In this document: positions 27,188 through 51,219 of the stretch, in pieces
Layout: each line of letters opens with the position of its first letter
How positions within the stretch are numbered: the first letter of the stretch is position 1
NCBI GenBank assembly: GCA_945787325.1
Contig: CALZHP010000004.1
Coordinates: 2,262 to 66,261, forward strand
Direction: 5' to 3'
Source of the DNA: an uncultured Desulfobulbaceae bacterium
GTDB taxonomy: Bacteria; Desulfobacterota; Desulfobulbia; Desulfobulbales; BM004
DNA: 64,000 nucleotides
Made by a program: the position numbers and the translations under genes
Notes under the pieces: model-generated
The model's database searches: none
Told to the model about the DNA's origin: nothing
The model's input: only the letters and a program-made list of their open reading frames with translations

Positions 27188-27189
27188 TA

Positions 27190-28809: not shown

Positions 28810-28969
28810 CAGGTTGGCAGAGTTTTCCTAGCCGATTTATTATATTGTCCAATAGCCTTTAACATGATAAAAATGAAGTCTTATAAAGAATTTATTTCAT
28901 ATAATTAAACTTTTTGTTGAACTAAACAGTTTATACTGTTTTTTAAAAAACACTTTTGAGTACAGTCTC

Positions 28970-30319: not shown

Positions 30320-30353
30320 CGGCTACTTACAGGATTATATGCTAAACAATAAA

Positions 30354-30383
30354 AGAACCCTGGGGAGCAGGGTTCTTTTTTTT
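30354..30383. terminator. intrinsic terminator between convergent ctpA and era
   Basis: GAACCCTG-gggag-CAGGGTTC followed by T8, with an A-rich tract on the other side. Confidence 0.75.
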
Positions 30384-30437
30384 GTGCCAAGTTTTTATAA
30401 TATAAATTAAAGAGCATCTTGTGCTCTGGTAACCCGC

Positions 30438-31349: not shown

Positions 31350-31659
31350 ATATTAATAGTTAGAACAACTTGTTCTGACCAGTTAAAGTTCCACAGTTTA
31401 ATCACAAATGACCATTTTTCAAGTTACTTGTTTTCCATTTAATATGTACTGTTAATTCGTGACAATTCAGATAATACTTGTTACATGAGCTGGCGATGTA
31501 CTTACTTTACAAGTGTATTTCATTTAACGCACAGATATTACGGCTGGAAATAGCAAATTGAAGAAGTTGATCCCTCTTCTATAAAATCATCACCAAGAGT
31601 ATCGTAAATGCTTAACAATTTAGATGCTTGATTAGCGTCAGGAGCCAGGCAAAAACTCA

Positions 31660-34093: not shown

Positions 34094-34138
34094 AAGGGAC
34101 ATAGTGGTATAAAGTGGGAAAAAGGGGTTCAACGGGGT
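34094..34138 (+). promoter_or_regulatory. candidate MraZ operator: G-rich boxes with 10-bp periodicity
   Basis: GGG (34096), GTGG (34104), GTGGG (34114), GGGG (34124) and GGGG (34134), each separated by an A/T-rich spacer. They lie directly upstream of the mraZ ATG at 34150. Confidence 0.5.
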
Positions 34139-34149
34139 ATCAATTAACC

Positions 34150-34617
34150 ATGAGTGAAAACAGTAGATCGACTGAAAATCGCTTCAGAAGCAGATCAGAA
34201 CACAATCTTGACGCAAAGGGCAGGCTCAGTATACCCAGCCGGTTCCGTGATGTTCTGCGTAGGGAGTATTCTGAAATTCTCATGGTTACCAACTGGCAAA
34301 GTTGCTTAAAAGCCTATCCAGTTCTCGTCTGGGAAGATATTGAAGCAACCCTTCTTGGACAGGGAAAAAAGCAGCCAAACATGGGTGCTTTTGTTCGTTA
34401 CGTTATTTCAGGCGTTACAGAATGTTCTCTGGACAAACAGGGAAGAATTTTACTGCCGCCTGCTCTGAGAACTGATTTTAAGATAAAAAAAACAGTGATG
34501 CTCAGCGGCATGCTTGACCATTTTGAAATATGGGACAAAGCTGCCTGGACTACGGAAACGCAACAGACACGAGACAACTTTAACTCCTTCGATCTTTCAA
34601 CACTGGGAATTTTGTAA
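34150..34617 (+). CDS. mraZ: transcriptional regulator MraZ
   Basis: Two MraZ repeats, DAKGRLSIP and DKQGRILLP. The start is trimmed to ATG 34150 because the longer ORF-track start runs through the repeat boxes. Confidence 0.9.
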   Translation: MSENSRSTENRFRSRSEHNLDAKGRLSIPSRFRDVLRREYSEILMVTNWQSCLKAYPVLVWEDIEATLLGQGKKQPNMGAFVRYVISGVTECSLDKQGRILLPPALRTDFKIKKTVMLSGMLDHFEIWDKAAWTTETQQTRDNFNSFDLSTLGIL

Positions 34618-34621
34618 AAAG

Positions 34622-35497
34622 GTGATTCATTATCCGGTTCTGCTTAAGGAAACAATCGAATACTTGGCGCCCAAAAATAATGAGATCTACGTTGACGGAA
34701 CAATGGGAATGGGGGGCCATACAGCTGAGATCCTCGAAAAAAGCAAACCGGACGGGCGGGTAATAGGACTTGATTGGGATGAAGAAGCTTTGGCCCTGGC
34801 CCGTGAAAGGCTTTCAGTATATGGGGACAGGCTCAGGACATTTCGAAGAAATTATGCGGAAATCAGTGAATGTCTGAAAGAACTTGGGATATCAAAGTTA
34901 AACGGTATCGTTCTAGACCTGGGAATGTCTTCATACCAGCTGGATTTAAGCAGTCGCGGCTTTACTTTCAAGGGAAGTGAACCCCTTGATATGAGGATGG
35001 ATAATCGCGGCAAGACAACAGCCGCGGAACTATTAAACTCAAGGAGCGCAGATGAATTGGCAGACATTTTTTTCTATTACGGTGAGGAACGGCAGTCTAG
35101 AAGAATCGCTGCTCGAATCGTGGAAGAGCGAAAGAACGATCGGATTGAAACCACGGACAGGCTTGCCGGCATTGTGGCACAAGCTGTCCCCAAACGTTTT
35201 CACCCGAAAAAAATCCACGTTGCGACAAAGGTCTTCCAGGCACTACGAATTGCCGTCAACCGTGAACTGGAAAATCTGAAAAATATTCTGGATGAAGCAC
35301 CGGCACTCATTGTTCCTGGGGGGAGGTTGTGCATAATTTCGTTCCATTCACTTGAAGATCGGCTGATCAAATGGAAATTCCGTGAGCATTCATCATTTAA
35401 TATCCTCACCAAAAAGCCGGTTATAGCAAGCGAAATTGAATGCCGTGAAAACCCACGATCCAGAAGTGCAAAGCTGAGAGCAGCCACAATAAAGTAA
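34622..35497 (+). CDS. rsmH: 16S rRNA m4C1402 methyltransferase RsmH
   Basis: HYPVLLKE, DGTMGMGGH and DLGMSSYQLD. The start is the GTG at 34622, just after the mraZ stop. The ORF-track start at 34514 overlaps mraZ. Confidence 0.9.
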   Translation: MIHYPVLLKETIEYLAPKNNEIYVDGTMGMGGHTAEILEKSKPDGRVIGLDWDEEALALARERLSVYGDRLRTFRRNYAEISECLKELGISKLNGIVLDLGMSSYQLDLSSRGFTFKGSEPLDMRMDNRGKTTAAELLNSRSADELADIFFYYGEERQSRRIAARIVEERKNDRIETTDRLAGIVAQAVPKRFHPKKIHVATKVFQALRIAVNRELENLKNILDEAPALIVPGGRLCIISFHSLEDRLIKWKFREHSSFNILTKKPVIASEIECRENPRSRSAKLRAATIK

Positions 35498-35589
35498 GAA
35501 ATTGAAACATAAAGTTAGCCGCTGAAAGGGAAACACTTAACCAAACAAAGATCAAACAAGGCCGTAATTATTAAATTGGAGGATTTGCA

Positions 35590-35955
35590 ATGATAAATGA
35601 TTATGCCGGGCACTACTTCAATACTGCTATTAGGAAGCAGCATCCCGTCAGAAGAAACTCATCATATAAGAAACTCCTCGGGGTTAACGGCACTTGGATG
35701 ATGTGGAAAAGTATTGGTGTAATGCTCGTAATGACTATGACAATAGGAATTACTTCCACTGTCTGGTTCGGCTGGCAGATTAAAAATTCACTCAGCAGTA
35801 TTGGCATTGAAAGAACGACTCAACACAACATCGTAACGGAAAACAATCAACTGGCTGCTAAGCGCGATCGGCTGCTGGTAAGAGAACAGATTGAAGCTGC
35901 GGCAAAAAAACTGGGCCTTGTTACTCCCACAGCACGTCAGCTTCGCAAACCGTAG
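35590..35955 (+). CDS. ftsL: cell division protein FtsL
   Basis: A single TM segment followed by a coiled coil, ending in QIEAAAKKLGLVTP. It sits in the conserved dcw position. Confidence 0.75.
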   Translation: MINDYAGHYFNTAIRKQHPVRRNSSYKKLLGVNGTWMMWKSIGVMLVMTMTIGITSTVWFGWQIKNSLSSIGIERTTQHNIVTENNQLAAKRDRLLVREQIEAAAKKLGLVTPTARQLRKP

Positions 35956-35966
35956 GATCAACATGA

Positions 35967-37913
35967 ATGAAATTCCGGCCTCATCGGCATAAACTGCCTG
36001 AGCTCAAAAGGAAACTTTTACTGGTAACCGGGTTAACTGTTTTCCTGGTTCTGGCCGGTATTTCTACAGCCTTCCTAAAGACACATCCTGACTCTTTGTC
36101 CGGTTTTATTAACCGGCAGGACCATCAACCGAAAAAAGAACTGAAAAACTACCGCGGCAAGATTTACGATAGGAACTTCAGGGAGTTAGCCGGCAGTTAT
36201 CAGACTTGTGCGGTTTACGCCCGCCCTTTAGAAATTGAGAATACAGAATTTGTTGCGGACCGCCTCACACAGACACTTGATCTGGATAAAGCTAAACTTC
36301 TGTCTGATCTTAAGTCAGAAAGGGGTTTCGTTTGGCTGATAGAAGCTCTTGACACTGAGAGTGCCTCAATTATATCAGATCTCAATTTGAAAGGAATTTA
36401 CGTAACAGACAAAACGAGACGGCTTTATTCGAACAACAAAACTGCAGCTCATATACTTGGTTTTACTGAAAACGAACAGGGATTGGATGGCGTTGAACTG
36501 CAATACAACAGTATTCTTAAAGGTGACACACTGCAGACAATTGATCTGCCTATGATTGAAGTTGAAGAAAATAACGGGCTCCCTAAAGGTGCTGAACTCA
36601 TATTAACACTGGATCTTAAAATCCAGAATATACTGGAGTCAAATCTCAGTAAAGTTATGAAAAAAAATGGTGCTACATCCGCCAAAGCAATAATTATGGA
36701 TCCGAACAACGGTGCCATTCTGGCAATGGCTAGCCTGCCTTCCTATGACCCCAACCGTTACTGGGAATACAGTGCTGGAGAAAGAAGTAATCGAGCAATA
36801 AATGAGCTTTTATTTACCAAAGGACTTGATGGTTTTATAAACAGCGTAATCCAAAAAGAAGCCATATTGAAGGAATTACCATCCAAGAAGAACCGAAAAG
36901 ATAAACCAAGTGAATATATAGTATTAGCTCCACGAAAAATTAAGAAAAAAATTACTGACAGAAGAGCTGCCTTTTATGCTGAGAATTTACAAGATAAGGT
37001 TGTCAGTTTTGCTGGAAACAGCAAATTCAATATTGATCTTCCAGCAGGTACAGATTCTTCTGACAGCAGTTACTCCACTTCTTTCTGGGTCGATACATTA
37101 AAACATTCATCCGCACTACAGCTTCTCTCAGATTTCGCTATCCTCATAAATAGCGGAAAAAATGTAGGCCCACACATGCTGGCCGGCATTCTGGACAAAT
37201 CGACCGGACAAACTCTGCAAACAAAATTCAGCAAATTGAATCGAACAATTTTAGACAATGAATCAGGGGAGTCTGCTTTAAACTTTATCACCGAACTTGG
37301 TACAGCCGGACCCAAAAAATCCTTTTTTTTGGAAGCCATTTTAGAACACGAGCCGGCCAAAACTTCACAAACTGAAGCAGATAGTCAAAATCAAAAAGTG
37401 AAAGATTTTCAAGAATCAAAATATAACAGTGTCATGTTGGCCGCCATTCCGTCAGAGAAGCCGGAACTAATTATGATTACAGCCTTTGATGGCTTAAATG
37501 TCCAGCGGAACAAAGGGGCCAAATTCAAATCACCTTCATTAAATATCGGTAAAAAAATATTACCGAAAGTTCTGCCTCTCAGCCAAACAAAAATTGTTTC
37601 AGCAAACCAGCCTGTTGGGGATATGGAGAACGCTGCGATTCTAGAAGCTTCTTTACACAAAATAAAAGCGAAACGAAAAGCTGGCAATAAATTAGTTCAA
37701 AAAGATAAGCCTGTTAACTTCAAAATGCCTGATGTTACAGGAAAAAGTTTACGCGGCGCCCTCCAGTCATTACAGCAGTATAGCTTGACAATTAACATTA
37801 ATGGTTCAGGAAAAATTACAGAACAATACCCCGAGGCCGGAACTACAACAGTGAGTGGGCAAAGTTGCAGTCTCAAACTGAAGACGCAAACGAAATTTCA
37901 GCCAGCACATTAA
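35967..37913 (+). CDS. ftsI: FtsI/PBP3-like protein with a degenerate (non-catalytic) transpeptidase domain and a C-terminal PASTA domain
   Basis: N-terminal TM anchor and PBP dimer domain (YRGKIYDRN, HILGF). IIMDPNNGAILAMASLPSYDPN aligns to the transpeptidase entry region. The SxxK position reads FTKGLDGF (nt 36813-36836) and the KTG position reads ELGTAG. PASTA domain: MPDVTGKSLRGALQSLQ. Confidence 0.8.
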   Translation: MKFRPHRHKLPELKRKLLLVTGLTVFLVLAGISTAFLKTHPDSLSGFINRQDHQPKKELKNYRGKIYDRNFRELAGSYQTCAVYARPLEIENTEFVADRLTQTLDLDKAKLLSDLKSERGFVWLIEALDTESASIISDLNLKGIYVTDKTRRLYSNNKTAAHILGFTENEQGLDGVELQYNSILKGDTLQTIDLPMIEVEENNGLPKGAELILTLDLKIQNILESNLSKVMKKNGATSAKAIIMDPNNGAILAMASLPSYDPNRYWEYSAGERSNRAINELLFTKGLDGFINSVIQKEAILKELPSKKNRKDKPSEYIVLAPRKIKKKITDRRAAFYAENLQDKVVSFAGNSKFNIDLPAGTDSSDSSYSTSFWVDTLKHSSALQLLSDFAILINSGKNVGPHMLAGILDKSTGQTLQTKFSKLNRTILDNESGESALNFITELGTAGPKKSFFLEAILEHEPAKTSQTEADSQNQKVKDFQESKYNSVMLAAIPSEKPELIMITAFDGLNVQRNKGAKFKSPSLNIGKKILPKVLPLSQTKIVSANQPVGDMENAAILEASLHKIKAKRKAGNKLVQKDKPVNFKMPDVTGKSLRGALQSLQQYSLTININGSGKITEQYPEAGTTTVSGQSCSLKLKTQTKFQPAH

Positions 37914-37944
37914 TATTTTTTTCAGTTTTAGAGTAGATACCAAA

Positions 37945-39582
37945 ATGACTGCACACTTGACAGATAGTTACCATAATACCCTCAAACATGTCCTGGATGG
38001 CATTCAACACCATCTGACTGCAAAGGAGGGGAATATAAGAATATCCGGTATTTCAATTGATTCTCGTAAAATTACATCTGGCAATATTTTTGTTGCTGTT
38101 TCCGGTAATAACGTTGACGGCCATATGTTTATTGAAAAAGCAATAAAAGCAGGCTGCAAAGCTATACTTGCGGATAGAGGAAAAGTCCCAAGAGGCGTTC
38201 GTAAAAAAACTGTTGTGGTTGAAGTAGAAAACACCCGAGCTGTTCTCGGGCACATTGCCTCTAATTTTTATAATCACCCAGCACGTTTAATGAAAATGAT
38301 TGGCATTACTGGAACCAACGGCAAGACAACTGTTTCGTACCTGATTGAATCAATTATCAGGGCCGGCGGTGGTAACCCTGGTGTAATTGGAACAGTTTCA
38401 TACCGCTATTCTGGCAGGAGCGGTAAAAATATTGAAATGCCGGCGGACTTCACTACTCCAGAAGCCCCTGATTTGCACAAACTTCTTAAGAAAATGTCTG
38501 ATAATGGTGTCAGCCATGTGGTTATGGAAGTTTCTTCACATGCTCTGGCTCAGCAACGAATTGAGGGGCTGAAATTTGACGTGGCCCTGTTTACCAACTT
38601 AAGCAGGGATCATCTCGATTTCCATAAGGATATGAACAGATATTACGACAGCAAAAAAAAGCTGTTTTGTGAATACTTGCACCCCAATGGACAGGCCATA
38701 GTCGTAATCGACAAAAACAAGGCGCAGCATAAAGGCCCTGACAGCATTCAGGATAATTCTACCAATTGGGGACATAAAATGGCTGCTGAGGTAGAGCATG
38801 AACTCTGCTCTCAAAGCAATAAAATTTCGGTCATGACATGTTGTCTTGACAAGGATTGCAGCATACATCCATCCAAATACAGTTTCACTCTTGCCGGCAC
38901 CAGTGCCGAGATAGTGAACCCGAAAGGATCTTTCCAGATTTACTCCGAGCTGACGGGTGAATTTAATCTGAGAAACATCCTTGCAGCTACAGGTGCAACA
39001 GCATCCCTGGGATATAAAAATACTGAAATATTTAAAGGCATTAGTGCTGTAAAAAATATTCCTGGCAGACTCGAAAAAATTCGTTCATCCAACCAAGCTA
39101 CCTTCTTTGTTGATTATGCACACACGCCAGATGCCATGGAAAATGTTCTTCAAACTCTAAAACAGCTGCAGTCCGGAAGGCTTATATGTGTGTTTGGATG
39201 CGGTGGAGACAGAGACCCGGGCAAAAGACCCATGATGGGGAAAATTGCAGGTGATTATTGTGATGTCGTACTGGCAACATCTGATAACCCCAGAACAGAA
39301 TCTCCCATAAAAATCCTCAATGAAATCGAAATAGGTCTTAAACGCTCGCATCTTGGCAGAAATCGTGCCGAAATCATTCTAACAGAGAATAAACGGCAAG
39401 GTTATGACATCATTCAGTCTCGGAGGGAAGCGATCGCTGTTGCTGTTCGCTACAGCCGTTCCGGTGACATTGTTCTGATTAGCGGTAAAGGTCACGAGTC
39501 ATATCAGATTACCATCACAGGAGTGAAGTATTTTGATGATCGTGAAGAAGTGAGAAAGCAAATGGGGGTAATACAATGGTAA
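37945..39582 (+). CDS. murE: UDP-MurNAc-tripeptide synthetase MurE
   Basis: GITGTNGKTT, DYAHTPDA and DNPR motifs. Confidence 0.93.
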   Translation: MTAHLTDSYHNTLKHVLDGIQHHLTAKEGNIRISGISIDSRKITSGNIFVAVSGNNVDGHMFIEKAIKAGCKAILADRGKVPRGVRKKTVVVEVENTRAVLGHIASNFYNHPARLMKMIGITGTNGKTTVSYLIESIIRAGGGNPGVIGTVSYRYSGRSGKNIEMPADFTTPEAPDLHKLLKKMSDNGVSHVVMEVSSHALAQQRIEGLKFDVALFTNLSRDHLDFHKDMNRYYDSKKKLFCEYLHPNGQAIVVIDKNKAQHKGPDSIQDNSTNWGHKMAAEVEHELCSQSNKISVMTCCLDKDCSIHPSKYSFTLAGTSAEIVNPKGSFQIYSELTGEFNLRNILAATGATASLGYKNTEIFKGISAVKNIPGRLEKIRSSNQATFFVDYAHTPDAMENVLQTLKQLQSGRLICVFGCGGDRDPGKRPMMGKIAGDYCDVVLATSDNPRTESPIKILNEIEIGLKRSHLGRNRAEIILTENKRQGYDIIQSRREAIAVAVRYSRSGDIVLISGKGHESYQITITGVKYFDDREEVRKQMGVIQW

Positions 39583-41042
39583 CCTGCGCATCGAACTCAG
39601 ACATTGACTGGACTCTCGACCAGGTTCTGCTTGCAACCGGGGGCAGATACATTGCAAGGAAGAATGCTAAACTTAGAAATGACGGCATGAGTGGTAGCTC
39701 GGTACATTTTCACTGTATTTCCACGGACTCACGTGCCATTCACCCAGGGGATATATTCCTGGGGCTTTCAGGTGAAAATTTCGACGGTGCCTCTTTTGCC
39801 CCGGATGCTGTCAAGAAAGGAGCAGCCGGGCTTATTTTAAACCAAGCCATTAATTCAGATATCGAGGAACCTACTCCCTCTATACCGGTAGTGGTTGTGA
39901 AGGATCCGCTCCTTGCGCTTGGCGATCTCGCAGCATACCGTCGTTCGCGAATGAAACACCTGAAAGTTGTCGCTATCACTGGAAGCTCTGGTAAGACCAC
40001 GGTCAAAGAAATGACCTCTTCCGTTGTCTCAAAAAAATTCAATATCGTTAAAACGCAAGGGAATTTCAACAACTTGGTCGGATTACCGCTTTCCTTGCTA
40101 CCTGTTAAAAGCCAACATGAAGTTGCAGTCCTGGAAATGGGGATGAACCAACCGGGTGAAATAGCACGGCTTACAGAAATCGCGGACCCTGATATTGCCT
40201 GCATCAATAACATACAGGAAGCCCATCTCGCTGGGCTCGGATCAATAAAGGGTGTTGCAAAAGCTAAGGGTGAGCTTTTTGCCGGCACAAAATCCTGGGG
40301 AACGCTTGTTGTTAATGTTGATGATCCACAGGTCCGAATTCTAGCGAGGAAATACCGGCACAGAAAAATCACCTTCGGCAGAAGAAAAGGTGCTGATATT
40401 CGGGCAACACATATCAGGGACAACGGTGAAAATGGCATGACTTTCACCCTTCATATCGGAAACAGACGCGTTCGCCTTCAGATCAAGGCTTTCGGAACTC
40501 ATAATGTAATGAACAGCCTTGCTGCAGCCGCAATAGCAAGTGGATTAGGAATTTCCATGTCAACAATCGTTAAAGGGCTTTCAACATTTAAGCCGTACGA
40601 CAAGCGTTCCCAAATTATTCATCTTGCATCGGGCCTGAAAGTCATAAACGACTCATATAATGCAAACCCTGCTTCAATGCAGGCTGCTCTGAGTGCTCTT
40701 CATAATCTGAAGCGAGAACGCAAAACCATGGCCGTTCTGGGTGATATGTTTGAACTTGGCGACAAGAGCAAAGACGCTCACAGTAAACTGGGGCAGGCCG
40801 CATTCGATTCCGGCGTTGATTACCTTGCAGCAACTGGTGAATATGCCGGGGATATTATTAAAACTGCCCTGCAGTCAGGTTTACCCAAAGAAAGAGCAAA
40901 AGTATTCAAGAATAAAAATGAAATATCGAAGTGGATAAAAAGACTTATAAAATCCGGAGATCTCCGACCAAATGATTGGCTGCTTATAAAAGGTTCCAGA
41001 GGAATGGAAATGGAAACCGTTCTTGAAGAGCTTAATAAATAA
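39576..41042 (+). CDS. murF: UDP-MurNAc-pentapeptide synthetase MurF
   Basis: ITGSSGKTT and NDSYNANP. It overlaps the murE stop by 7 nt. Confidence 0.93.
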
Positions 41043-41068
41043 CAACAAAATATTCTGTAAAAAGTAAT

Positions 41069-42148
41069 ATGCTTTACCACTTACTATATCCACTCAGCAG
41101 CTTCTTCAGCGGATTTAACGTATTCCGCTATATAACTTTCAGGTGCATAGGTGCATCTATCACAGCCTTTCTGATCGTGATATATGTCGGACCGGCATTT
41201 ATACGGTTAATTAAGAAACACCAGATCGGCCAGGTAATCAGAGAGGACGGCCCGGAAACACATTTCGATAAACAGGGTGTACCAACCATGGGCGGTGTGT
41301 TAATCCTCCTTACCATCGCCTTGGTAACTCTATTGTGGGTTGATTTGAGTAATCGATATGTGTGGCTGGTATTGTCCGTCACTCTCTGGTTCGGTCTGGT
41401 GGGTACGATTGATGATCTACGCAAAATAAAGAAAAAGAACAGTTCTGGTCTCAGTGCTCGAGCGAAATTTATCCTGCAGATAGTTGGTGCCTCAATTGTA
41501 GGAATTTTTCTTTTCCTGCACCCGCAGTTCGACGGTCACCTCAATTTCCCGTTTTTCAAGAACATCCGCCCTGATCTAGGTTGGTGGTACATTTTATTTG
41601 CTGTTCTCGTCATAGTCGGAGCTTCTAACGCGGTTAATCTAACAGATGGACTGGACGGATTGGTTACCGGCCCCACTGTTATCACTGGCAGTGTATATCT
41701 TATCTTTTCCTACCTCGCAGGCCACGCGGTACTGGCTGATTACCTGCAAATTGTTTTTGTTCCCGGCGCCGGTGAAGTAGCCGTTTTTTGCGGCGCACTG
41801 GTAGGCAGTTGCCTTGGTTTTCTCTGGTTTAACTCATTTCCTGCCCAAATATTTATGGGTGACGTTGGTTCATTGGCGCTTGGAGGAGCACTGGGAACTA
41901 TAGCAATAATAACAAAACAGGAATTCCTTCTCGCCATTGTAGGCGGGATTTTTGTAATGGAAGCGGTCTCAGTAATTTTACAGGTTGGTTTTTTTAAGTT
42001 AAGCGGTGGAAAAAGGATTTTTTTAATGGCTCCTTTCCATCACCATTTTGAGAAAAAAGGGTGGGCAGAACCAAAGGTGGTTGTCCGCTTCTGGATTGTT
42101 TCAATAATTCTAGGCCTTGTGGCCCTGGCAACACTTAAATTGAGATAA
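41069..42148 (+). CDS. mraY: phospho-MurNAc-pentapeptide translocase MraY
   Basis: Polytopic membrane protein with [21 protein letters not shown] and PFHHHFE. Confidence 0.95.
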
Positions 42149-43638
42149 TGACTGAAATATTTCGACAAAACAAGTGCAGGATTTCACCAAACACCCACAT
42201 TGTAGTTGTTGGTCTGGGTAAGTCTGGGATTGCAGCTGTCCGGTTTTTTTTAAATCGGGGGTGCCAGGTTTCCGTCTCTGATTCGAGTCCAATAGATTCT
42301 TGGGACCAAAAGCTGATATGCGAATTGAAGGAAAAGAATGTTTTCATTGAAGGTGGGAAACACACCTCTGAGCTGTTCTGCTCAGCTGACATAATTATGG
42401 TGAGTCCCGGCGTTCCCCTCGATTTGCCTGTTCTTAAAGAAGCTCGAACACACTCTATACCTGTTGTAGGAGAAATGGCATTCACAGCACAATTTATGAA
42501 AACACCAATTGTAGCTGTAACAGGAACCAACGGTAAGACAACAGTTACTACTTTACTGGGGGATATTTTCAAGGCGAGTGGTCAAAACGTGTTTGTCGGC
42601 GGCAACATAGGAACTCCACTCTTTGAATACATGGATAGTCCACAAGACAAAGACATTGCTGTTATTGAAGTCAGCAGTTTCCAACTTGATACGGCTGGTG
42701 GAGAGGGCTGTTTCAGGCCAAAAGCTGCCGTTTTACTTAATATTTCTCAAGATCACCTCGATCGATATGAATCTTTCAATGCCTATGCTCGTTCAAAGTT
42801 CAGTATCTTCGCGGCCCAGAAAGAATCTGACTTTTCCGTGATCAACGTCGATGACCCGGAAATCACTTCCCGTATTCATCTCTTACCGCCCAGCAAACAT
42901 CTATCATTCGGTCATGAGAAAATTACCAATGCTGGTTCCTCAGTAAGAGGCTACAAAGTATTTCTTTCAGAAAAAGTCACTCCTTCAGGATTGCAGGAAA
43001 AATATGATCTGGAAGATAGCAGCCTAAGTGAATTGCCAAACTCACTGAATGCTGCAGCTGCAATCCTAATAGCCAGGGTTATGGGTTGTAGTGAAGAGTG
43101 TATAAACAAAGGCATTAAGAGTTTTAGTCCCCTTCCCCATCGGTTAAGTCTCGTCGATGATATCGGAGGTGTCAGCTACTATGATGACTCGAAAGCAACC
43201 AACATAGGCGCCACACTTTCAGCTCTCAACTCTATAAAAAAACCGGTAATACTCATTGCTGGCGGCCGGGACAAGGGGGGAGATTACAGGCAACTGCACA
43301 AAGCCATAAAGAAAAAAGTAAAAGCCCTTGTGCTTTTAGGTGAAGCCAGAGGCAAAATGATTGATTCCTTTAAAGGCCTGACTTTGATCGAATCTGCTGA
43401 CACCATGGCAGATGCGGTAAATTCAGCTGCAACTCTTGCTCAACAGGGGGATGTGGTTCTGCTATCCCCCGCATGTTCCAGTTTTGACATGTTCTCCAGT
43501 TATGCAGAACGGGGAGAAATCTTCAAAAAAGCTGTCAATGATCTAAAAAAAAAACTGGCGGGTAGCCAATTGCCTGCTGCAGTTTGGGGGATGTCCGCAG
43601 CCAAGTGTCGAATCGCAAATGAAGCGACACAAAACTAA
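42148..43638 (+). CDS. murD: UDP-MurNAc-L-Ala:D-Glu ligase MurD (with a roughly 30-aa C-terminal extension)
   Basis: VVGLGKSGIAA, VTGTNGKTT and DDSKATN. It shares 1 nt with the mraY stop. Confidence 0.92.
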   Translation: MTEIFRQNKCRISPNTHIVVVGLGKSGIAAVRFFLNRGCQVSVSDSSPIDSWDQKLICELKEKNVFIEGGKHTSELFCSADIIMVSPGVPLDLPVLKEARTHSIPVVGEMAFTAQFMKTPIVAVTGTNGKTTVTTLLGDIFKASGQNVFVGGNIGTPLFEYMDSPQDKDIAVIEVSSFQLDTAGGEGCFRPKAAVLLNISQDHLDRYESFNAYARSKFSIFAAQKESDFSVINVDDPEITSRIHLLPPSKHLSFGHEKITNAGSSVRGYKVFLSEKVTPSGLQEKYDLEDSSLSELPNSLNAAAAILIARVMGCSEECINKGIKSFSPLPHRLSLVDDIGGVSYYDDSKATNIGATLSALNSIKKPVILIAGGRDKGGDYRQLHKAIKKKVKALVLLGEARGKMIDSFKGLTLIESADTMADAVNSAATLAQQGDVVLLSPACSSFDMFSSYAERGEIFKKAVNDLKKKLAGSQLPAAVWGMSAAKCRIANEATQN

Positions 43639-43676
43639 GGACAAATCAACATCAATTACGAGAAAGGAGAAAAATT

Positions 43677-43877
43677 ATGACGAAGGCAAAATGCTGCATC
43701 TGTAAACAGGAAAAAGATATATTTGGCTGGGTATTGATGACACAACACAAAAGCCTGTCACTGGCATATTGTCCGGAATGTTATCAGGACAAAAAAGGAG
43801 ATGAGCAGGAGCAACTGGTCGATTGTTCAAACTTTATCGACGATACGAGTGATCTGCTTTTTTGCTTTAAAAGCTGA
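43677..43877 (+). CDS. mini zinc-ribbon protein, paralogue 1 (CxxC...CPxC), function unknown
   Basis: 66 aa reading KCCICKQEKDIFGW..LSLAYCPECY. A strong AAAGGAG RBS lies 8 nt upstream. No TM segment. Confidence 0.7.
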   Translation: MTKAKCCICKQEKDIFGWVLMTQHKSLSLAYCPECYQDKKGDEQEQLVDCSNFIDDTSDLLFCFKS

Positions 43878-43941
43878 TTCCAAAGATCCAGTATCAATTT
43901 TGCATCAGATTTTCAAATCACCAGCCTAGAGGAGGGGCAGC

Positions 43942-44160
43942 ATGAGTGTAAGAACTATTTGCTGTGTTTGCCGAAAAACAAAAGACCTAAACGGGTGGAT
44001 CGACAAATTTATTTCTCAATACAAAACGCTTTCTCATGGATATTGCCCGGAGTGTTATGAAGAAACTATCAAAAAAATTGATAAGGCAAAAGCAAAAGGA
44101 AAGCACAAACCAAATATCTCAGAAACTTTTGATATGACTGGTGAAGATTTTTTAAGTTAG
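43942..44160 (+). CDS. mini zinc-ribbon protein, paralogue 2 (CxxC...CPxC), function unknown
   Basis: 72 aa reading ICCVCRKTKDLNGW..LSHGYCPECY, with a Lys-rich tail. A strong GAGGAGG RBS precedes it. Confidence 0.7.
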   Translation: MSVRTICCVCRKTKDLNGWIDKFISQYKTLSHGYCPECYEETIKKIDKAKAKGKHKPNISETFDMTGEDFLS

Positions 44161-44263
44161 AGGCCATAATATTTCTGATGTTAGCTATTAATCATATAGC
44201 ATCATAGTAGTTATACTGTGCATATATAAGGAATTATTATTGTAAATTTACGAGTTACAAAAC

Positions 44264-45421
44264 TTGAATAAATCAGACAAGGACCCAATACGAATGGTTG
44301 TTACCGGAGGTGGAACCGGTGGGCATCTTTTTCCCGGTATTGCAGTAGCAGAAGAAATATTGCGGCGGTTTCCGGATGGGCGTGTTCTTTTCATTGGAAC
44401 TAACCGCCTTGTTGATAGCAGTATCCTTAATGATCAGTCATTTGAAACTACCAGTATCAAAAGCAGCGGTATAAAGGGCATGAGTTTTATCTCCCGTTTA
44501 AAAGCACTTTTGCAAATACCTTACAGTGTCATTCAGGCAGCAGGCATTTTACGGAGGTTCAAAGCTGATCTTGTACTCGGAGTAGGAGGTTATGTGACAG
44601 GTCCCGTTGTACTTGCAAGCCGGATAATGGGCGTACCTGCATGCATACATGAACAGAATTCTGTGCCGGGAATGGCCAATCGATTACTTGGTCATATTTG
44701 CAATAAAGTATTCCTTTCAATACCCGGCAGTGAAAAATATTTTCCTTCCGGAAAAACTCTTTTAACTGGCAATCCCGTTAGGCAAGAATTGCTTAAATCA
44801 ATAAACACTCAAATTTCAGAAATTTCAAGTAATGACAGGAAGGTGCCTACCCTTCTTATCCTGGGCGGAAGCCAGGGGGCTCACAGGGTAAATATATTAA
44901 TGCTTGAATGTGTAAAAAAGCTCTTGTCTGACATGCCGAACAGCTTTAATATAGTCCACCAAACCGGCAGTGCCGATAAAGATTATGTGAAAAAAACCTA
45001 TAGTGAATTGGGTATATCAGCAGATGTCTCTGCATTCATTAAAAATATGAATGAGGTCTACCAAAAGGCGGACCTCATAATCTCAAGAGCTGGGGCCACA
45101 ACTCTCGCCGAGCTTGCCGTGCTCGGCAAGCCCTCGATATTAATTCCATACCCCTACGCCGCTGATAATCATCAGGAAAAAAATGGGCAATATCTCTGCA
45201 ATTCCGGTGGGGCCAGAATGTTTATTGAAGCAGGTCTAACTGGTGAAAAACTGGCAGGAGAAATTTCCAAACTCCTACAGGACCCTGAATCTCTCAAGAT
45301 AATGGGTGAAAAAATCAAGCAAATGGGAAAACCTGAAGCAACCGACGCAATTGTAAACCAAAGCCTTACTTTACTGGGCATCAAATATAACAAAACTACT
45401 TCTGCAAACACTGATGTATAA
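44264..45421 (+). CDS. murG: lipid II GlcNAc transferase MurG
   Basis: [10 protein letters not shown] and RAGATTLAE. The start is TTG 44264, or possibly ATG 44294. Confidence 0.92.
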
Positions 45422-46799
45422 AAAAACAAAGCATATTCATTTCGTGGGAATCGGCGGCATAGGTATGAGCGGTATTGCCGAAGTGCTGATAAATCTTGGA
45501 TATAAAGTAAGCGGTTCCGATCTCAGGGAATCTGAAATAACTAAAAGTCTCAAGAAACTCGGTGGAACAATCCATAAAGGACATAACAGCGAATGGGTAG
45601 ATGGTGCAGATGTTGTGGTAACATCTTCAGCTGTAAAGGAAGATAACCCGGAAGTCCTTGCAGCAACTGACGCCCATATACCGGTAATTCCTAGGGCGGA
45701 GATGCTAGCAGAACTTATGCGCCTGAAAAAATACGGTATAGCAATTGCCGGCAGTCATGGAAAGACAACCACTACATCAATTGTGGGCTGGCTCCTTGCT
45801 CAAGCCGATCTCGATCCCACAGTGGTTATAGGTGGTAAGGTTAACAGCTTTGGTGGCAGCAACGCCAAACTTGGCGAGGGAGAATTCCTGGTTGCTGAAG
45901 CTGATGAAAGTGACGGATCTTTCTTGAACCTGTCTCCAGTAATAGAAGTTGTCACCAATATAGACCTAGAGCACCTGGATTTTTATAGTGACCTTGACGA
46001 CATAAAAAGTATTTTCCTGAGATTCATAGACAAAATACCTTTTTATGGAGCAGCAATTCTTTGCCTTGATGACCCGAACGTTGCTGACATATTACCCTTT
46101 GTAAAGAAAAGAATTATCACTTACGGCATGACCGCTCAAGCGGATGTACATGCCAGGGAGATTTCGACTTCTGGGTTGACTTCTCACTTTGAAGTATGCC
46201 TTGGAGATCAATCACTGGGCGTAATTGAACTATCTTTGCCTGGTACTCATAATATCTATAACGCCCTGGCTGCCATCACCGTTGGACTGGAGCTTGACAT
46301 CCCGTTTGAAACAATTGCATCTGCACTGAAAAGTTTTTCCGGAGTCCAACGAAGGCTACAGATAAAAGGTGAAAAAAAGGGAATAACTGTAATTGATGAT
46401 TATGGCCATCATCCTACAGAAGTAAGAGCTACCCTCTCAGCCCTTCGTGATGCGTGGCCGGGAAGACGGCTGGTAGTCCTTTTTCAACCGCACCGCTATT
46501 CCCGTACCAAAGGTCTTATGAAAGAGTTCCATACCGCATTTCATGCTGCAGATGTTTTAGTTCTTACTAACATTTATGCGGCAAGTGAAGAACCGATTAA
46601 AGGAGTAACTTCCGAGGCATTATTAAACGGTATCAAGATGCACGGACAGAAAAACACTTTACTGGTTCCAGATATTGAAAACCTGCCTGAAGAAATATTA
46701 CCTATCTTACATAGTGAGGATATCGTTCTCACCCTCGGTGCCGGTAATATCTGGAGATCGGGAGAGCAATTGTTGAGCATGCTTGAAGGAAACTCATAA
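45414..46799 (+). CDS. murC: UDP-MurNAc:L-Ala ligase MurC
   Basis: [20 protein letters not shown] and DDYGHHP. It overlaps murG by 8 nt. Confidence 0.94.
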
Positions 46800-46814
46800 G
46801 GAGAAATAACATTC

Positions 46815-47768
46815 GTGCCGTCACTGCAACATTTATCACAAGAGTTAACGCAGTTCTGGCAAGGTAAGATTTTATGGGATTTTCCCATGGCCCGATTCTC
46901 TACATTTAAGGTTGGCGGGCCTGCCGAAGCTGTACTCGTAGCTGAGAGCCAGGATGAGCTGGTCATGCTGGTACAATGGCTTCATAAAAACAAAATCCAC
47001 AGTTATGTTATCGGCAAGGGAAGCAATATTCTGGTGCCGGACACAGGATTGAAGGGCGCTGTAATAGTTCTTGGGAATAAATTTGCTTCCCTTGAAATAG
47101 AGCCGAATGATGATCAAGAAACGAAAAAATCTACTACACTGGTTAATGCTGGGGCAGCCTGCTTGCTTAATAAACTTGTAAAGTATTCAACTGAAAACAA
47201 TTTAAGCGGTTTGGAGTTTGCGGCAGGCATTCCAGGAAGTGTGGGCGGAGCAATAGTAATGAATGCAGGAGCATGGGGTGGTGAAATGAGTGATGCCATC
47301 CACTCTGTTACTTTTATGGACCCAGAAGGTATTATAATGAGTCCCGGGAAAGAGCAACTTCAATTTGCTTACAGAAAATGGGGCGGCAGCAAAAAAAGTA
47401 TTGTGCTGTCCGGTGTCTTTTCTTTAACAAAAGGAGAAAAAAATAAGATATCAGCAACCTGCAAGAAGTATCAAAAAGCTCGAAAAATTAAACAACCCCT
47501 GGGAATACCCAGTGCAGGTTCTTTTTTTAAAAACCCTCAGAGTCTGCCGGCAGGAAAACTTATTGAAGATGCAGGTTTGAAGGGTTTCAGTATTGGCGGA
47601 GCTATGGTCTCTCCAGTACATGCCAACTTCATTGTTAACACAGGGAAAGCCACTGCAGACGATGTTTTTGCCGTTATGCAGGAAGTACAGGATAAAGTTC
47701 TTCATAGCTCAGGTATCATGCTGGAACCGGAAGTCCATATTCTTGGAGAGGAGGGCTGTCAGGCATGA
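46815..47768 (+). CDS. murB: UDP-N-acetylenolpyruvoylglucosamine reductase MurB
   Basis: FAD-binding region FKVGGPAE, GKGSNIL and SAGSFFKNP. GTG start. Confidence 0.9.
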   Translation: MPSLQHLSQELTQFWQGKILWDFPMARFSTFKVGGPAEAVLVAESQDELVMLVQWLHKNKIHSYVIGKGSNILVPDTGLKGAVIVLGNKFASLEIEPNDDQETKKSTTLVNAGAACLLNKLVKYSTENNLSGLEFAAGIPGSVGGAIVMNAGAWGGEMSDAIHSVTFMDPEGIIMSPGKEQLQFAYRKWGGSKKSIVLSGVFSLTKGEKNKISATCKKYQKARKIKQPLGIPSAGSFFKNPQSLPAGKLIEDAGLKGFSIGGAMVSPVHANFIVNTGKATADDVFAVMQEVQDKVLHSSGIMLEPEVHILGEEGCQA

Positions 47769-48628
47769 AATCTTTCCGTTTAAGAAAAAGGCAGAAAACA
47801 TACAGGAGCTCATCTCGACCTACAGATTATAATACGAGAAAACGTACTAGAATCACGACATACTTTAATAAAAAACATATATTCCAGCTTCTGTCGATAT
47901 TGCTTCTGTTCTGTGTCGGAAGTGTTGCATCGATGGTTATATACCAGAAGCTCTGCAAGTCTGATTTTTTTAGAATAACAAACACATATATTAAAGGTTG
48001 TGAACATACAAACAAGACTGAAATACTTGAGCAGTCGGGTATTGACATACACACTAACCTGCTGGCCTTGGATGTATCAGCTGTTAAATCTAAGCTTGAA
48101 GAACACATTTGGGTGCACCACGTGGACATTTCACGGGTCTGGCCGAATCAGCTGAAATTTATTGTTTAAGAGAGAAAACCTTTGGCACTTCTCAACACCA
48201 GTAATGGGCTCTATTACATTGATAAATACGGCAAAAAAATAACTCATGTAAATATGCCCGGAGACCTTGATTTCCCTGTCATAACTGGTATAAATGAAAA
48301 CACTATGACTGCTCGGTCGAATGAGGTAAAATCCACTGTGCTTGACAACGCTCTCACCTTTTTACGATACGCAGGTCGCGGCAATCCAATATTACCGAAG
48401 CAGAACATTTCTGAAATCCATATTACAGAAAAAGGCGGTATGGTTCTTTATCTTCTGGATCACACTTTTCCCATTTATCTTGGACAGGAGAAAATAAGCG
48501 GTCAATACAACCGTCTCATCAAGGTCCTCAAGGGTCTGTATAAGAAAGATGAACTCTCAAATATTGCCTATATCGATATGGATTATCAGGAAGATAAAGT
48601 CCTGGTTGGCAAAACGAAATCTGGTTAA
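47765..48628 (+). pseudogene. ftsQ: ftsQ interrupted by a single in-frame TAA (48170-48172); otherwise full length
   Basis: The two ORF-track pieces (47765..48169 and 48182..48628) are in the same frame. The junction reads VWPNQLKFIV*ERKPLALL, which matches the conserved FtsQ POTRA motif WPxxL.I.V.ER.P.A. Confidence 0.75.
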
Positions 48629-48639
48629 ACGAACCATAT

Positions 48640-49881
48640 ATGAAAGACATGAAAAACGAACAGCGTGGTAAAATAATAGTCGGACTTGATATTGGTACGA
48701 CAAAAATCTGTGCCGTGATCGGTGAAGTTCTAAATAGCGAAATAGATATTATCGGCATTGGTACACACCCATCTGTCGGCCTTAAGAAGGGTGTTGTTGT
48801 CAATATTGATAGTACAGTTAATTCAATCCGTGCCGCGATTGAAGAAGCGGAAGAGATGGCCGACTGCGTAGTCGACACTGTTTGTGTCGGCATCGCTGGG
48901 AGCCATATCAAAGGATTCAACAGCCCCGGTATAGTAGGCATAAAAAACCGGGAGATAAAGCAGGATGACATAGATCGCGTCATAGACGCTGCCCGTGCTG
49001 TAAATATCTCACAGAACCAGGAAATAATCCATGTTCTGCCGCAGGAATTCATGGTTGACGATCATACCGGCATACAGGATCCCCTCGGCATGACCGGTGT
49101 ACGGCTTGTCACCAACGTGCATATCGTCACAGGGGATGCCACTTCTGTACATAACCTTGTCATGTGTTGCAATCGAGCCGGTCTGAAAGTTGCGGATATA
49201 GTACTAGAATCACTTGCTTCGGCCAATTCAGTTCTTACAGTAGAAGACATGGAACTTGGCGTTGCTCTGCTCGAAATAGGCGGCGGCACCTCTGATCTTG
49301 CCATATTTTCCGGTGGGACTATCAAACACACTTTCGAGCTTGGTCTGGGAGGAAACAATCTGACTAACGACTTGTCAGTCGGTCTCAGAACTCCATTACA
49401 GGAAGCTGAAAAACTGAAAATTAATTACGGAAGTGCACTCACGTCAATGATAAACAAGGATCATACTATTGAAGTTCCCGCAGTTGGGGATCGTAAACCA
49501 AGAAAGTTGTCCAGGAAAATCATGGGGGAAATTCTGGAGCCGCGTATTGAGGAAATGCTGATCCTTATAAATCAGGAAATGATTGATTCATCTTATAAGG
49601 AAAGACTGACGGCTGGAATAGTAATAACAGGCGGTACAGCCCTGCTCAACAATATAGTTGACCTTGCAGAGCAGATCTTCGATCTTCCTGTACGTATAGG
49701 GTACCCTCACCATGTTGGGGGGCATACCAATACGATTGATTCACCACAGTTTGCAACCGGTGTTGGGCTGGTAATATATAACAGCAGAAATGTATCCGGC
49801 CGCAAATACCGTGTAAAAGATAAAAAAGTTTTTAACCGTTTCGGCGGTTGGATGAAAAACATATTTACCAATCATATGTAA
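48640..49881 (+). CDS. ftsA: cell division protein FtsA
   Basis: Actin-fold motifs GLDIGTTKICAVIGE and EIGGGTSDLAIF. Confidence 0.95.
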   Translation: MKDMKNEQRGKIIVGLDIGTTKICAVIGEVLNSEIDIIGIGTHPSVGLKKGVVVNIDSTVNSIRAAIEEAEEMADCVVDTVCVGIAGSHIKGFNSPGIVGIKNREIKQDDIDRVIDAARAVNISQNQEIIHVLPQEFMVDDHTGIQDPLGMTGVRLVTNVHIVTGDATSVHNLVMCCNRAGLKVADIVLESLASANSVLTVEDMELGVALLEIGGGTSDLAIFSGGTIKHTFELGLGGNNLTNDLSVGLRTPLQEAEKLKINYGSALTSMINKDHTIEVPAVGDRKPRKLSRKIMGEILEPRIEEMLILINQEMIDSSYKERLTAGIVITGGTALLNNIVDLAEQIFDLPVRIGYPHHVGGHTNTIDSPQFATGVGLVIYNSRNVSGRKYRVKDKKVFNRFGGWMKNIFTNHM

Positions 49882-50043
49882 AAATACTGTAAAAACGGGC
49901 GTTATAAATATGGCTAAGTAAAATGTTTGATGTAATGACAGCAATCACTGCAATATTTGCGTTACTTTTAGATAAGACAATCTAAATCGAACCTTTTACG
50001 AAGTCATCAATATGTAAAACTAGAGTTCAATAAGGGGGGAAAC

Positions 50044-51219
50044 ATGTCATTCAGAATGGCGGAAACTGAGTCAATGGCCAGAATTAAGGTCATAGGTGTA
50101 GGTGGTGGAGGAGGAAACGCCGTCAACACCATGGTGGACAACAATCTGCAAGGCATCGAGTTCATTGCTGCAAATACCGATATCCAAGCCCTGGAAAATT
50201 CCAAGGCGGACATCAGACTGCAGCTGGGACCAGGTGTCACCAAGGGGCTTGGCGCAGGAGCCGACCCCGAACGCGGAAGAGACGCAGCTGAAGAAAGTGT
50301 CGAGGATATCCGTAAACTTCTGAAAGATACGGATATGGTTTTTGTTACTGCCGGACTGGGAGGAGGTACGGGCACTGGAGCGGCTCCGATTGTATCCCGG
50401 GTCAGCCGGGAAGCAGGAGCTCTCACTGTGGCAGTTGTCACCAAACCTTTTTTCTTTGAAGCTAAAACCCGTATGAATAAAGCGGAAGAAGGCTGGGAAG
50501 AACTCAAGGAACATGTTGATACAATAATCACCATACCAAACGACCGCCTTTTATCCATTATGCAGAAAGGCAGCAAACTGATGGATATGATGAAAAAGGC
50601 AGACGATGTCCTGCTACAGGCAGTGAAAGGCATCACCGACCTCATCAATCTTCCTGGCCATATGAATGTCGACTTCGCTGATCTTCGAACTGTAATGAGA
50701 CAGGTTGGGCCCGCAATAATGGGTGCCGGAGTCGGTGTTGGAGAGAACAGAGCAGTAGAGGCCGCTAAAAAAGCAATAGATAACCCCCTGCTTCAAGACG
50801 TCGGTATCGACGGTGCCAAAGGTGTTCTTATAAATATATCCGCCAGTGAAGACTCGCTTACCATGACTGAATTCATGGAAGCATCTACCCTGATTCAGGA
50901 AAAAGCCCATGTTGATGCTAATATCATTGTAGGTGCCCTTTTCGATGAAAGCCTCGGTGATGAACTTCGGGTTACCGTTATTGCAACGGGAATAAATGAA
51001 GAAGAGGAACTTTTTGCCGTCCCTGAACCTGTACTACCGATAAATAGGGTTAAGGAAGAAAAAGCAAATGAGTCCGATGATAAAACTACTGAAAGAACAT
51101 CAAACAGGCCTTCCTACCGAAAAAATAAAGGTGATGTGAGAAGACCTGTACCAGTTCCAAGGTTTCTGGACGAGTCGGAACTTGAAACACCGACCTATTT
51201 GAGACAAGCGGCAGACTGA
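50044..51219 (+). CDS. ftsZ: cell division protein FtsZ
   Basis: GVGGGGGNAVN, the GGGTGTGAAP tubulin signature, and the C-terminal peptide ELETPTYLRQ. Confidence 0.97.
   Translation: MSFRMAETESMARIKVIGVGGGGGNAVNTMVDNNLQGIEFIAANTDIQALENSKADIRLQLGPGVTKGLGAGADPERGRDAAEESVEDIRKLLKDTDMVFVTAGLGGGTGTGAAPIVSRVSREAGALTVAVVTKPFFFEAKTRMNKAEEGWEELKEHVDTIITIPNDRLLSIMQKGSKLMDMMKKADDVLLQAVKGITDLINLPGHMNVDFADLRTVMRQVGPAIMGAGVGVGENRAVEAAKKAIDNPLLQDVGIDGAKGVLINISASEDSLTMTEFMEASTLIQEKAHVDANIIVGALFDESLGDELRVTVIATGINEEEELFAVPEPVLPINRVKEEKANESDDKTTERTSNRPSYRKNKGDVRRPVPVPRFLDESELETPTYLRQAAD

Follow-up and report, generated by a model that had tools for sequence, protein, structure and literature searches.

The dcw (division and cell wall) gene cluster of bacteria has the canonical order mraZ ... 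ftsI murE murF mraY murD ftsW murG murC murB ddl ftsQ ftsA ftsZ. A 64-kb stretch of contig CALZHP010000004.1 from an uncultured Desulfobulbaceae bacterium, referred to here as the window, carries a dcw cluster whose order is canonical apart from missing ftsW and ddl (Table 1). The ftsI-like gene of this cluster encodes a protein, designated FtsI*, that lacks the catalytic residues of a class B penicillin-binding protein (bPBP), and its ftsQ is interrupted by a single in-frame TAA codon. A first-pass annotation of the window had interpreted these features as three independent lesions eroding one functional module, the septal peptidoglycan synthase. Comparison with related genomes does not bear this out. 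The absence of ftsW and ddl and the loss of the FtsI motifs are common to all loci examined from the order Desulfobulbales. The ftsQ stop alone is peculiar to the window genome, and it is unrelated to the order-wide architecture.

Gene content of the cluster and its distribution

The individual observations of the first-pass annotation hold. The spacer between murD and murG is 625 bp long and contains only two small open reading frames (ORFs). No gene of the SEDS (shape, elongation, division and sporulation) family, to which FtsW belongs, was found across the window by tblastn with two outgroup FtsW queries, and neither a second bPBP gene nor a ddl gene was found within it. The murB and ftsQ genes overlap by 4 nt, and therefore there is no ddl between them. 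A scan of the murD-murG spacer for promoters and terminators returned nothing above shuffled expectation. The remaining dcw genes were correctly described as intact and tightly coupled. They are full length compared to homologues, and they overlap by 7 nt (murE/murF), 1 nt (mraY/murD) and 8 nt (murG/murC). The genes upstream of the cluster (ftsE, ftsX, an M23 peptidase gene, ctpB, era and an RNase II gene) are also full length. The ftsL gene matches the NCBIfam FtsL models weakly (E 0.01-0.05), and its product is 39% identical over all 122 aa to that of the ORF at the same position in L001, a metagenome contig.

Is this layout peculiar to the window? A scan by MurG alignment of 185,579 species representatives, with one genome per GTDB species, yielded 80 loci, almost all of them from Desulfobulbales. 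The window genome was not among the scanned representatives. Each locus consisted of murG with flanks of up to 10 kb, and the named taxa included Desulfobulbus, Desulfocapsa, Desulfopila, Desulfotalea, Desulfurivibrio, Desulfogranum, Candidatus (Ca.) Electrothrix and Ca. Electronema. ORFs were called in all loci and compared with the window proteins by BLAST. In every Desulfobulbales locus except those of cable bacteria, murD was followed by murG either directly or with only a homologue of the second small ORF in between. Loci of cable bacteria had a few kb of unrelated genes between murD and murG. A ddl gene between murB and ftsQ was found in none of the loci of the scanned set, and ftsQ came right after murB, apart from the four loci without murB described below. 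When outgroup FtsW was used as a tblastn query, SEDS genes were detected in three outgroup loci only, namely L079 (Myxococcota), L083 and L077 (Desulfobacteraceae), and each was located directly upstream of murG. Pfam confirmed FtsW in L079 and L083. None of the Desulfobulbales loci had a SEDS gene at 10 kb or less from murG. Metagenome contigs L001 and L002 follow the gene order of the window from ftsE/ftsX up to the end of the retrieved stretch, which lies inside ftsQ; murD abuts murG and murB abuts ftsQ in the two contigs alike. The more distant homologue contigs L084 and L085 display the same layout.

The genes inserted between murD and murG in cable bacteria were considered as a place where a SEDS gene might be hidden. 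Unrelated ORFs occupy ~4-5 kb between murD and murG in Ca. Electrothrix and relatives (4831-9704 in L037, 4549-9953 in L044, and 6055-9947 in L051), and L075 has no murD within 10 kb (upstream of 9959). None of the insert ORFs of these four loci resembles a SEDS protein, and a SEDS gene hidden in the ~5-kb inserts of the Electrothrix loci was rejected on this ground. Extra genes between mraY, murD, and murG were reported previously in a cable bacterium and match the inserts seen here (Geerlings et al. 2021, PMC7873302). A different rearrangement was observed in L038, L043, L046 and L059 (Desulfopila and Desulfosediminicola-type), where murB is out of the cluster and ftsQ comes next after murC. 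Because murB is missing from the cluster in some loci, relocation of dcw genes is evidently ongoing within the order.

That four Desulfobulbaceae genomes lack ftsW was already reported in 2021. In that study, zipA, ftsW and ftsN were missing from two genomes each of Ca. Electrothrix and Desulfobulbus, and rodA and pbpA were located in the mre cluster of the same four genomes (PMC7873302). The wider survey adds a practical point: a missing ftsW or ddl in metagenome-assembled genomes of Desulfobulbales reflects neither an assembly gap nor decay.

The first-pass annotation had also proposed that septation may have changed toward filamentous or chain growth or shared envelope layers. The distribution of the architecture argues against this proposal. 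The same architecture is found in Desulfobulbus, Desulfocapsa, Desulfotalea and Desulfurivibrio as well as in cable bacteria, and therefore it does not correlate with filamentous growth. Two species of Desulfobulbus, D. propionicus and D. japonicus, are described as non-filamentous (PMC7873302). A neighbour-joining tree was built from six dcw proteins in concatenation. In it, the window was sister to an uncultured clade (L005, L007, L016 and L018), inside Desulfobulbales and at a distance from the groups of Electrothrix and Desulfobulbus. Electrothrix (L044) grouped in the same tree with the L045/L056 cluster, in a larger clade that also held Desulfobulbus loci. An origin of the window from a cable bacterium (Ca. 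Electrothrix or Ca. Electronema) was rejected because the window falls outside the Electrothrix clade.

The two small ORFs in the place usually taken by ftsW encode mini-proteins with four cysteines (Cys4), referred to as sm1 and sm2. Both ORFs are preceded by a Shine-Dalgarno sequence (AGGAG upstream of sm1). The sm1 protein aligns with the sm2 family, and the window holds two tandem paralogues. Members of the sm2 family are 58-89 aa long (mostly 60-75) and display the pattern CCxC ... HGYCPxC[FY] followed by a helix. The family is present between murD and murG in 24 Desulfobulbales loci (L006, L008-L015, L017, L021-L024, L026, L028, L030, L031, L033, L035, L036, L045, L068 and L076). The ratio of nonsynonymous to synonymous substitution rates (dN/dS or omega) of sm2 is 0.22-0.43, indicating purifying selection. 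Neither sm1 nor sm2 matched a Pfam or NCBIfam family, and a word-indexed homologue search with the mini-protein retrieved 7 relatives only. An AlphaFold2 model of sm2 predicts a beta-ribbon plus a helix. Compared against the PDB, the model gave no significant fold match, and the best hits were the Cys4 sites of Fur-family proteins at E ~1. The distribution of sm2 is patchy. It is absent from the closest relatives of the window (L001, L002, L005, L007, L016 and L018), and the closest copy (69% identity) occurs in L017, a locus that is more distant. A single small hypothetical gene had been noted earlier within the clusters (PMC7873302). The Cys4 mini-protein that often takes the former place of ftsW could act as a divisome factor specific to this lineage.

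FtsI* and the nonsense codon in ftsQ

The N-terminal part of FtsI* is readily recognised, as the Pfam model PBP_dimer (PF03717) matches it at E 1.5e-14. A PASTA domain was also found. The Pfam transpeptidase model covers residues 241-279 only (39 residues; model positions 3-37 of 299), and matches to the NCBIfam bPBP models are confined to the N-terminal ~280-325 residues and score far under the cut-offs. In the alignment, both catalytic positions of the SxxK motif are occupied by glycine, an Ala precedes a gap at the SxN position, and a deletion has removed the KTG region. The window FtsI* is devoid of a K[ST]G motif throughout its length. Thus, the statement of the first-pass annotation that FtsI lacks its catalytic residues is confirmed. 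With the loss of SxxK, SxN and KTG, FtsI* cannot be the septal transpeptidase.

The loss of the motifs is not confined to the window. In a homologue search, the best identity beyond the window's own protein was at most 36%, and the next ~60 matches came from Desulfobulbales-type bacteria, as judged from the few with names. SxxK was missing in 18 of 18 aligned homologues, which read 'EPVYPGELxxIFQQAAA' where SpoVD reads 'YEPGSTFK'. A broader alignment consisted of 50 Desulfobulbales proteins, SpoVD, and the FtsI of outgroup L079. No Ser or Lys was present at the catalytic SxxK columns in any of the 50 proteins, and the KTG region was deleted in most of them. The FtsI of L079, the one outgroup among the three that has ftsI in range, keeps all three motifs and has a complete transpeptidase domain (E 7e-80) together with PASTA. 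PASTA is therefore likely to be ancestral, and only catalysis was lost.

The fold of the protein has been retained. A profile of the FtsI* family aligns end to end with PBP3 of Pseudomonas aeruginosa (residues 15-528), and the GSTVK of PBP3 stands opposite 'gelal' in the profile. The AlphaFold2 model of the window FtsI* has a mean predicted local distance difference test score (pLDDT) of 79.8 and a predicted template modelling score of 0.74, with a helix at residues 13-39 and a pedestal of pLDDT >90. In a Foldseek search, this model matched full-length SpoVD, PBP3 and PBP2x over ~550 columns (E 1.8e-31 to 1e-26). FtsI* has the membrane anchor, the pedestal and the transpeptidase fold of a bPBP, and it lacks the SxxK, SxN and K(T/S)G motifs and an ftsW in its cluster.

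Is FtsI* a decaying gene? The FtsI* ORF is intact and encodes ~590-700 aa in all 50 species. Selection was estimated as simple pairwise Nei-Gojobori dN/dS, in which some pairs had saturated dS (>1). In 9 species pairs, dN/dS was 0.07-0.34 for the N-terminus and pedestal, 0.10-0.57 for the transpeptidase remnant, and 0-0.25 for PASTA, values comparable to the 0.09-0.22 of murG. Within the order, omega was 0.09-0.30 for FtsQ and 0.16-0.42 for FtsL. Judged by these ratios, FtsI* is kept under purifying selection, and likewise FtsQ and FtsL across the order. The idea that FtsI* is a pseudogene was rejected because the ORF is intact in 50 species, omega is 0.07-0.57 by domain, and the fold is kept. 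An additional erosion of FtsI in the window was rejected as well, because its divergence fits the order-wide trend: where MurG identity is 0.45-0.55, an FtsI identity of 0.24-0.28 is usual within the order, the window included.

The ftsQ gene is a different case. The transmembrane segment, the POTRA domain and the FtsQ/DivIB C-terminal domain are all encoded in one frame, and the TAA codon falls between the POTRA half (Pfam E 6e-14; residues 72-131) and the C-terminal half (E 5.5e-11). A tblastn search with L001 FtsQ produced a single high-scoring segment that runs through the stop at 45% identity. In all 63 loci with both halves recognised, ftsQ is a single uninterrupted ORF. A sense codon is present at the TAA column in all 63 relatives, making the stop unique among 64 sequences. 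The column to which the TAA aligns is variable (K19, R13, Q6, V6, H6, Y4, ...), and one base change from AAA, CAA, GAA or TAY yields it. The flanking conserved motifs 'WPNxL.I.V' and 'ER.P.A' are both perfectly kept in the window.

The part of ftsQ downstream of the stop shows no sign of decay. The ratio of C-domain to POTRA identity was 1.22 for the window and 1.24 for other pairs, which placed the window 26th of 64. Thus, no excess divergence after the stop was seen when C-domain and POTRA identity were compared across the 64 sequences. The absence of decay together with the intact neighbouring genes indicates that the TAA is either a very recent mutation or a consensus error. Of the lesions named in the first-pass annotation, the ftsQ stop is the one specific to this genome, and the sequence after the stop does not fit the erosion that it had proposed. 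Recoding of TAA was rejected because all other conserved genes in the block are uninterrupted ORFs; TAA is not known to be recoded in bacteria.

Models of septation without FtsW

It is very probable that the window carries a normal Desulfobulbales dcw cluster. This cluster lacks ftsW, has its ddl outside, and has retained a non-catalytic FtsI* that likely serves as a scaffold, with the synthases encoded elsewhere; the ftsQ TAA is a separate young event or an error. According to this model, ftsW would have been lost from the cluster, and also from the genome judging by published inventories, at or before the base of Desulfobulbales. In the same time frame, ddl would have moved outside the cluster, and the dcw-encoded FtsI would have lost all three transpeptidase motifs. 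FtsI* would then have been retained as a non-catalytic bPBP, with FtsL and FtsQ retained alongside. In a divisome core of FtsQ, FtsL and FtsI*, the last may play the part of a scaffold or a regulatory subunit, and its PASTA domain may bind nascent peptidoglycan. Polymerisation and cross-linking of septal glycan would be performed by RodA-PBP2 or by a class A PBP encoded elsewhere. The TAA in ftsQ would have been added separately to this stable architecture, either as a very young event at a single nucleotide or as a base-calling error. A more far-reaching form of the model states that the whole order Desulfobulbales divides without any FtsW, that its FtsI has been dead yet maintained since the origin of the order, and that septal peptidoglycan is made by RodA-PBP2 and/or class A PBPs recruited or licensed by FtsQ-FtsL-FtsI*. 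This form is put forward tentatively, with a chance of being correct that approaches even.

Of the two explanations offered by the first-pass annotation, division by peptidoglycan synthases encoded elsewhere is the likeliest in kind. We do not expect a second canonical ftsW-ftsI-ftsQ set. The first-pass annotation had further proposed a comparison across the clade to date each lesion. This comparison shows that the losses of ftsW, ddl and the FtsI motifs are ancient and inherited together, and that the ftsQ stop alone is specific to this genome.

Several points weigh against the model. The genome-wide absence of ftsW depends on the homology search of one paper in four genomes (PMC7873302). The dN/dS of the transpeptidase remnant is higher than that of the pedestal in most pairs, and part of the transpeptidase domain may be weakly constrained. 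The distribution across the order, the loss of catalysis, the selection, the retained fold and the uniqueness and youth of the ftsQ stop are shown by the data; that FtsI* serves as a scaffold, and which enzyme builds the septum, are both inferred. A single assembly appears to be known for the lineage of the window, with no second one in which to check the ftsQ stop. In line with this, FtsI*, both FtsQ halves, FtsZ, sm1 and sm2 of the window are singletons at 90% identity among ~15 billion public sequences.

How else could these features be explained? That ftsW, ftsI and ftsQ are eroding together in this genome through independent lesions is highly improbable. All three features are present in the window, and the sole nonsense codon seen in 64 kb hits a divisome gene. 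However, two of the three supposed lesions and the ddl absence are common to every Desulfobulbales locus examined. Furthermore, FtsI* is under purifying selection and the window copy is no more diverged than the norm of the order; FtsQ and FtsL are under purifying selection too, and ftsQ is undecayed after its stop. Relocation offers another explanation, in which a functional ftsW and a catalytic division bPBP reside elsewhere in Desulfobulbales genomes and FtsI* is a redundant leftover paralogue. The published search of four Desulfobulbaceae genomes makes this unlikely, as it found no ftsW and only rodA and pbpA in the mre cluster (PMC7873302). No SEDS gene occurs in the 10 kb to either side of murG in the Desulfobulbales loci, and a redundant leftover would not stay intact at omega 0.1-0.3 in 50 species across an order. 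In favour of relocation, dcw genes do move, as ddl, and murB in some loci, are outside the cluster.

The origin of the ftsQ TAA can be read in two ways. It is quite possible, though short of even, that the TAA stems from an error in sequencing or in the consensus, or from a minority allele that the assembler fixed; FtsQ would then be intact and the genome ordinary for its order. The TAA is a single-base change at a column with K, R, Q, Y or E codons in relatives, its flanking motifs are perfectly conserved with no excess divergence downstream, and FtsQ is under purifying selection in all relatives, all of which are in line with an error. On the other hand, consensus substitution errors are rare. 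The assembly does not look error-prone either, with no other broken gene in the synteny block and with the larger ORFs elsewhere in the window matching their families over most of their length. The alternative is that the stop, which is present in the sequence, is real and recent. A stub with the transmembrane segment and POTRA would be tolerated as the catalytic FtsW-FtsI client is gone, and the mutation would be a first step to divisome reduction. The C-terminal domain of E. coli FtsQ binds FtsB and FtsL, and it is this domain that the stop removes in an order already without FtsW and catalytic FtsI. This alternative is conceivable and somewhat doubtful. All 63 relatives with the same ftsW-less architecture have kept FtsQ conserved and under constraint, so that it is evidently still needed there, and no secondary decay is visible. 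Restart at a TTG four codons past the stop would produce a C-terminal fragment that lacks the membrane anchor and is stranded on the wrong side of the membrane.

The arrangement can be compared with the canonical divisome of FtsW-FtsI and FtsQLB, represented by E. coli and by the FtsWIQBL complex of P. aeruginosa (PDB 8bh1). The ftsI* gene occupies the canonical place after ftsL, and FtsL, FtsQ, FtsA and FtsZ are present. FtsI* has the transmembrane anchor, pedestal and bPBP fold of its canonical counterpart, and 8bh1_B is among its Foldseek matches. Unlike the canonical system, the Desulfobulbales cluster has no ftsW, and FtsI* has no SxxK, SxN or KTG, carries a C-terminal PASTA domain and has no adjacent SEDS partner.

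The FtsW-FtsI pair, described in recent literature as essential for septation, is considered universally conserved, with Clostridioides difficile as an exception in which the class A PBP1 functions at the septum (Shrestha et al. 2023, PMC10693644). In C. difficile, the FtsW-FtsI pair does not build the vegetative septum, and FtsQ, FtsL and related components persist (PMC10693644; PMC12539705); the same is probable for Desulfobulbales. The two differ in other respects. C. difficile is a monoderm spore former whose dcw-encoded SEDS-bPBP pair, SpoVE-SpoVD, has been repurposed for sporulation with its catalysis intact, whereas Desulfobulbales appear from their genes to have outer-membrane functions (LpxR in the window), no dcw SEDS at all, and a catalytically dead bPBP. 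The study of Geerlings et al. concerns the same clade and the same missing ftsW; unlike the present analysis, it assumed FtsI to be an active septal synthase, did not mention the loss of motifs, and covered four genomes instead of ~80 species (PMC7873302).

A precedent for a division bPBP that acts as a structural or regulatory subunit independently of catalysis is PBP2B of B. subtilis. The transpeptidase activity of PBP2B is dispensable and the protein is essential (Sassine et al. 2017, as cited in PMC12516126). PBP2B differs from FtsI* in being naturally active and paired with FtsW, while the inactivation of FtsI* is natural, ancient and fixed, and its FtsW is gone. Another comparison is with the 2572 proteins from many phyla that have a pedestal but no recognisable transpeptidase domain (Garcia-del Portillo et al. 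2025, PMC12516126). FtsI* would look the same as these in a domain scan; as the source describes them they lack the domain, whereas FtsI* keeps a degenerate transpeptidase fold. The main text of that paper names no 'Desulfo' taxon, and Desulfobacterota are absent from the taxa that it lists for pedestal-only proteins.

Searches of a literature collection found no paper on a catalytically dead FtsI in this clade. Thus, the dead FtsI of Desulfobulbales is apparently unreported, whereas the absence of ftsW was known for four genomes. One consequence concerns annotation: 'FtsI' calls in Desulfobulbales should not be taken as active PBP3. If the far-reaching form of the model is true, Desulfobulbales would be a second exception, after C. 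difficile, to the septal synthase FtsW-FtsI regarded as 'universal', and one that is phylogenetically independent and far larger. The comparative data point to an exception of this kind that spans an entire order of sulfur-cycling bacteria with environmental importance. The system makes two questions testable, namely what role a division bPBP has beyond catalysis and which synthase builds a septum without FtsW. Cultivable members exist in Desulfobulbus, Desulfotalea and Desulfurivibrio.

Feature coordinates and neighbouring genes

Table 1. Features of the dcw cluster and other genes of the window (positions in nt)
Feature	Position	Strand	Remarks
mraZ	34114-34617	+	intact; 69% identical to L001 MraZ over 156 aa
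rsmH (mraW)	34514-35497	+	intact; 58% identity with L001 RsmH
ftsL	35590-35955	+	intact; single transmembrane segment, then coiled coil
ftsI-like (FtsI*), 648 aa	35967-37913	+	transmembrane anchor, pedestal, degenerate transpeptidase fold, PASTA
Gly286 and Gly289 of FtsI* in place of SxxK Ser and Lys	36822-36833	+	from alignment
murE	37945-39582	+	intact; separate from murF
murF	39576-41042	+	intact
mraY	41069-42148	+	intact; ~72-75% identity to relatives
murD	42148-43638	+	intact; Pfam MurD N-terminal, Mur ligase M, Mur ligase C
sm1, 66-aa Cys4 mini-protein	43677-43877	+	sm2 paralogue; usual ftsW slot
sm2, 72-aa Cys4 mini-protein	43942-44160	+	murD-murG spacer
murG	44264-45421	+	intact; Pfam GT28 N- and C-terminal domains both present
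murC	45414-46799	+	intact
murB	46815-47768	+	intact; Pfam FAD_binding_4, MurB_C; 4-nt overlap with ftsQ
ftsQ	47765-48628	+	one reading frame, interrupted by single TAA
in-frame TAA nonsense codon in ftsQ	48167-48169	+	from sequence
ftsA	48640-49881	+	intact; Pfam FtsA, SHS2_FTSA
ftsZ	50044-51219	+	intact; ~60-66% identity to relatives
upstream synteny block ftsE, ftsX, M23 peptidase, ctpB, era, RNase II	25612-33651	era on -	intact; tblastn with L001 proteins
ParA/MinD-type P-loop ATPase gene	24755-25513		directly upstream of ftsE-ftsX and M23 peptidase
lpxR	60761-61882	-	full length; Pfam E 2e-103
three small proteins with PEP-CTERM sorting motifs and a sigma-54 PEP-CTERM-box response regulator	53-988, 1547-2149, 4365-5093, 6130-6762		motifs C-terminal; response regulator cut by window edge

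The order of the upstream synteny block is identical in L001 and L002. The gene for a ParA/MinD-type P-loop ATPase heads this division-related block in the window.

The state of murE and murF varies within the order. They are separate overlapping genes in the window (37945-41042) and in Desulfurivibrio-like loci, and they are fused as one ORF of ~1030 aa in many other Desulfobulbales, including the sister clade of the window. The murE/murF region spans 12036-15140 in L001 and 12028-15141 in L002. MurE-MurF chimeras are already known (PMC10214165).

Two observations concern the rest of the window. LpxR is an outer-membrane lipid A 3'-O-deacylase, and its presence indicates a probable outer membrane with lipid A remodelling. 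At the other end of the window, the sigma-54 PEP-CTERM-box response regulator is represented by its C-terminal two-thirds only. Together with the three small PEP-CTERM proteins, it points to an exosortase/exopolysaccharide locus, which lies where the GC content is lower (0.38-0.42).

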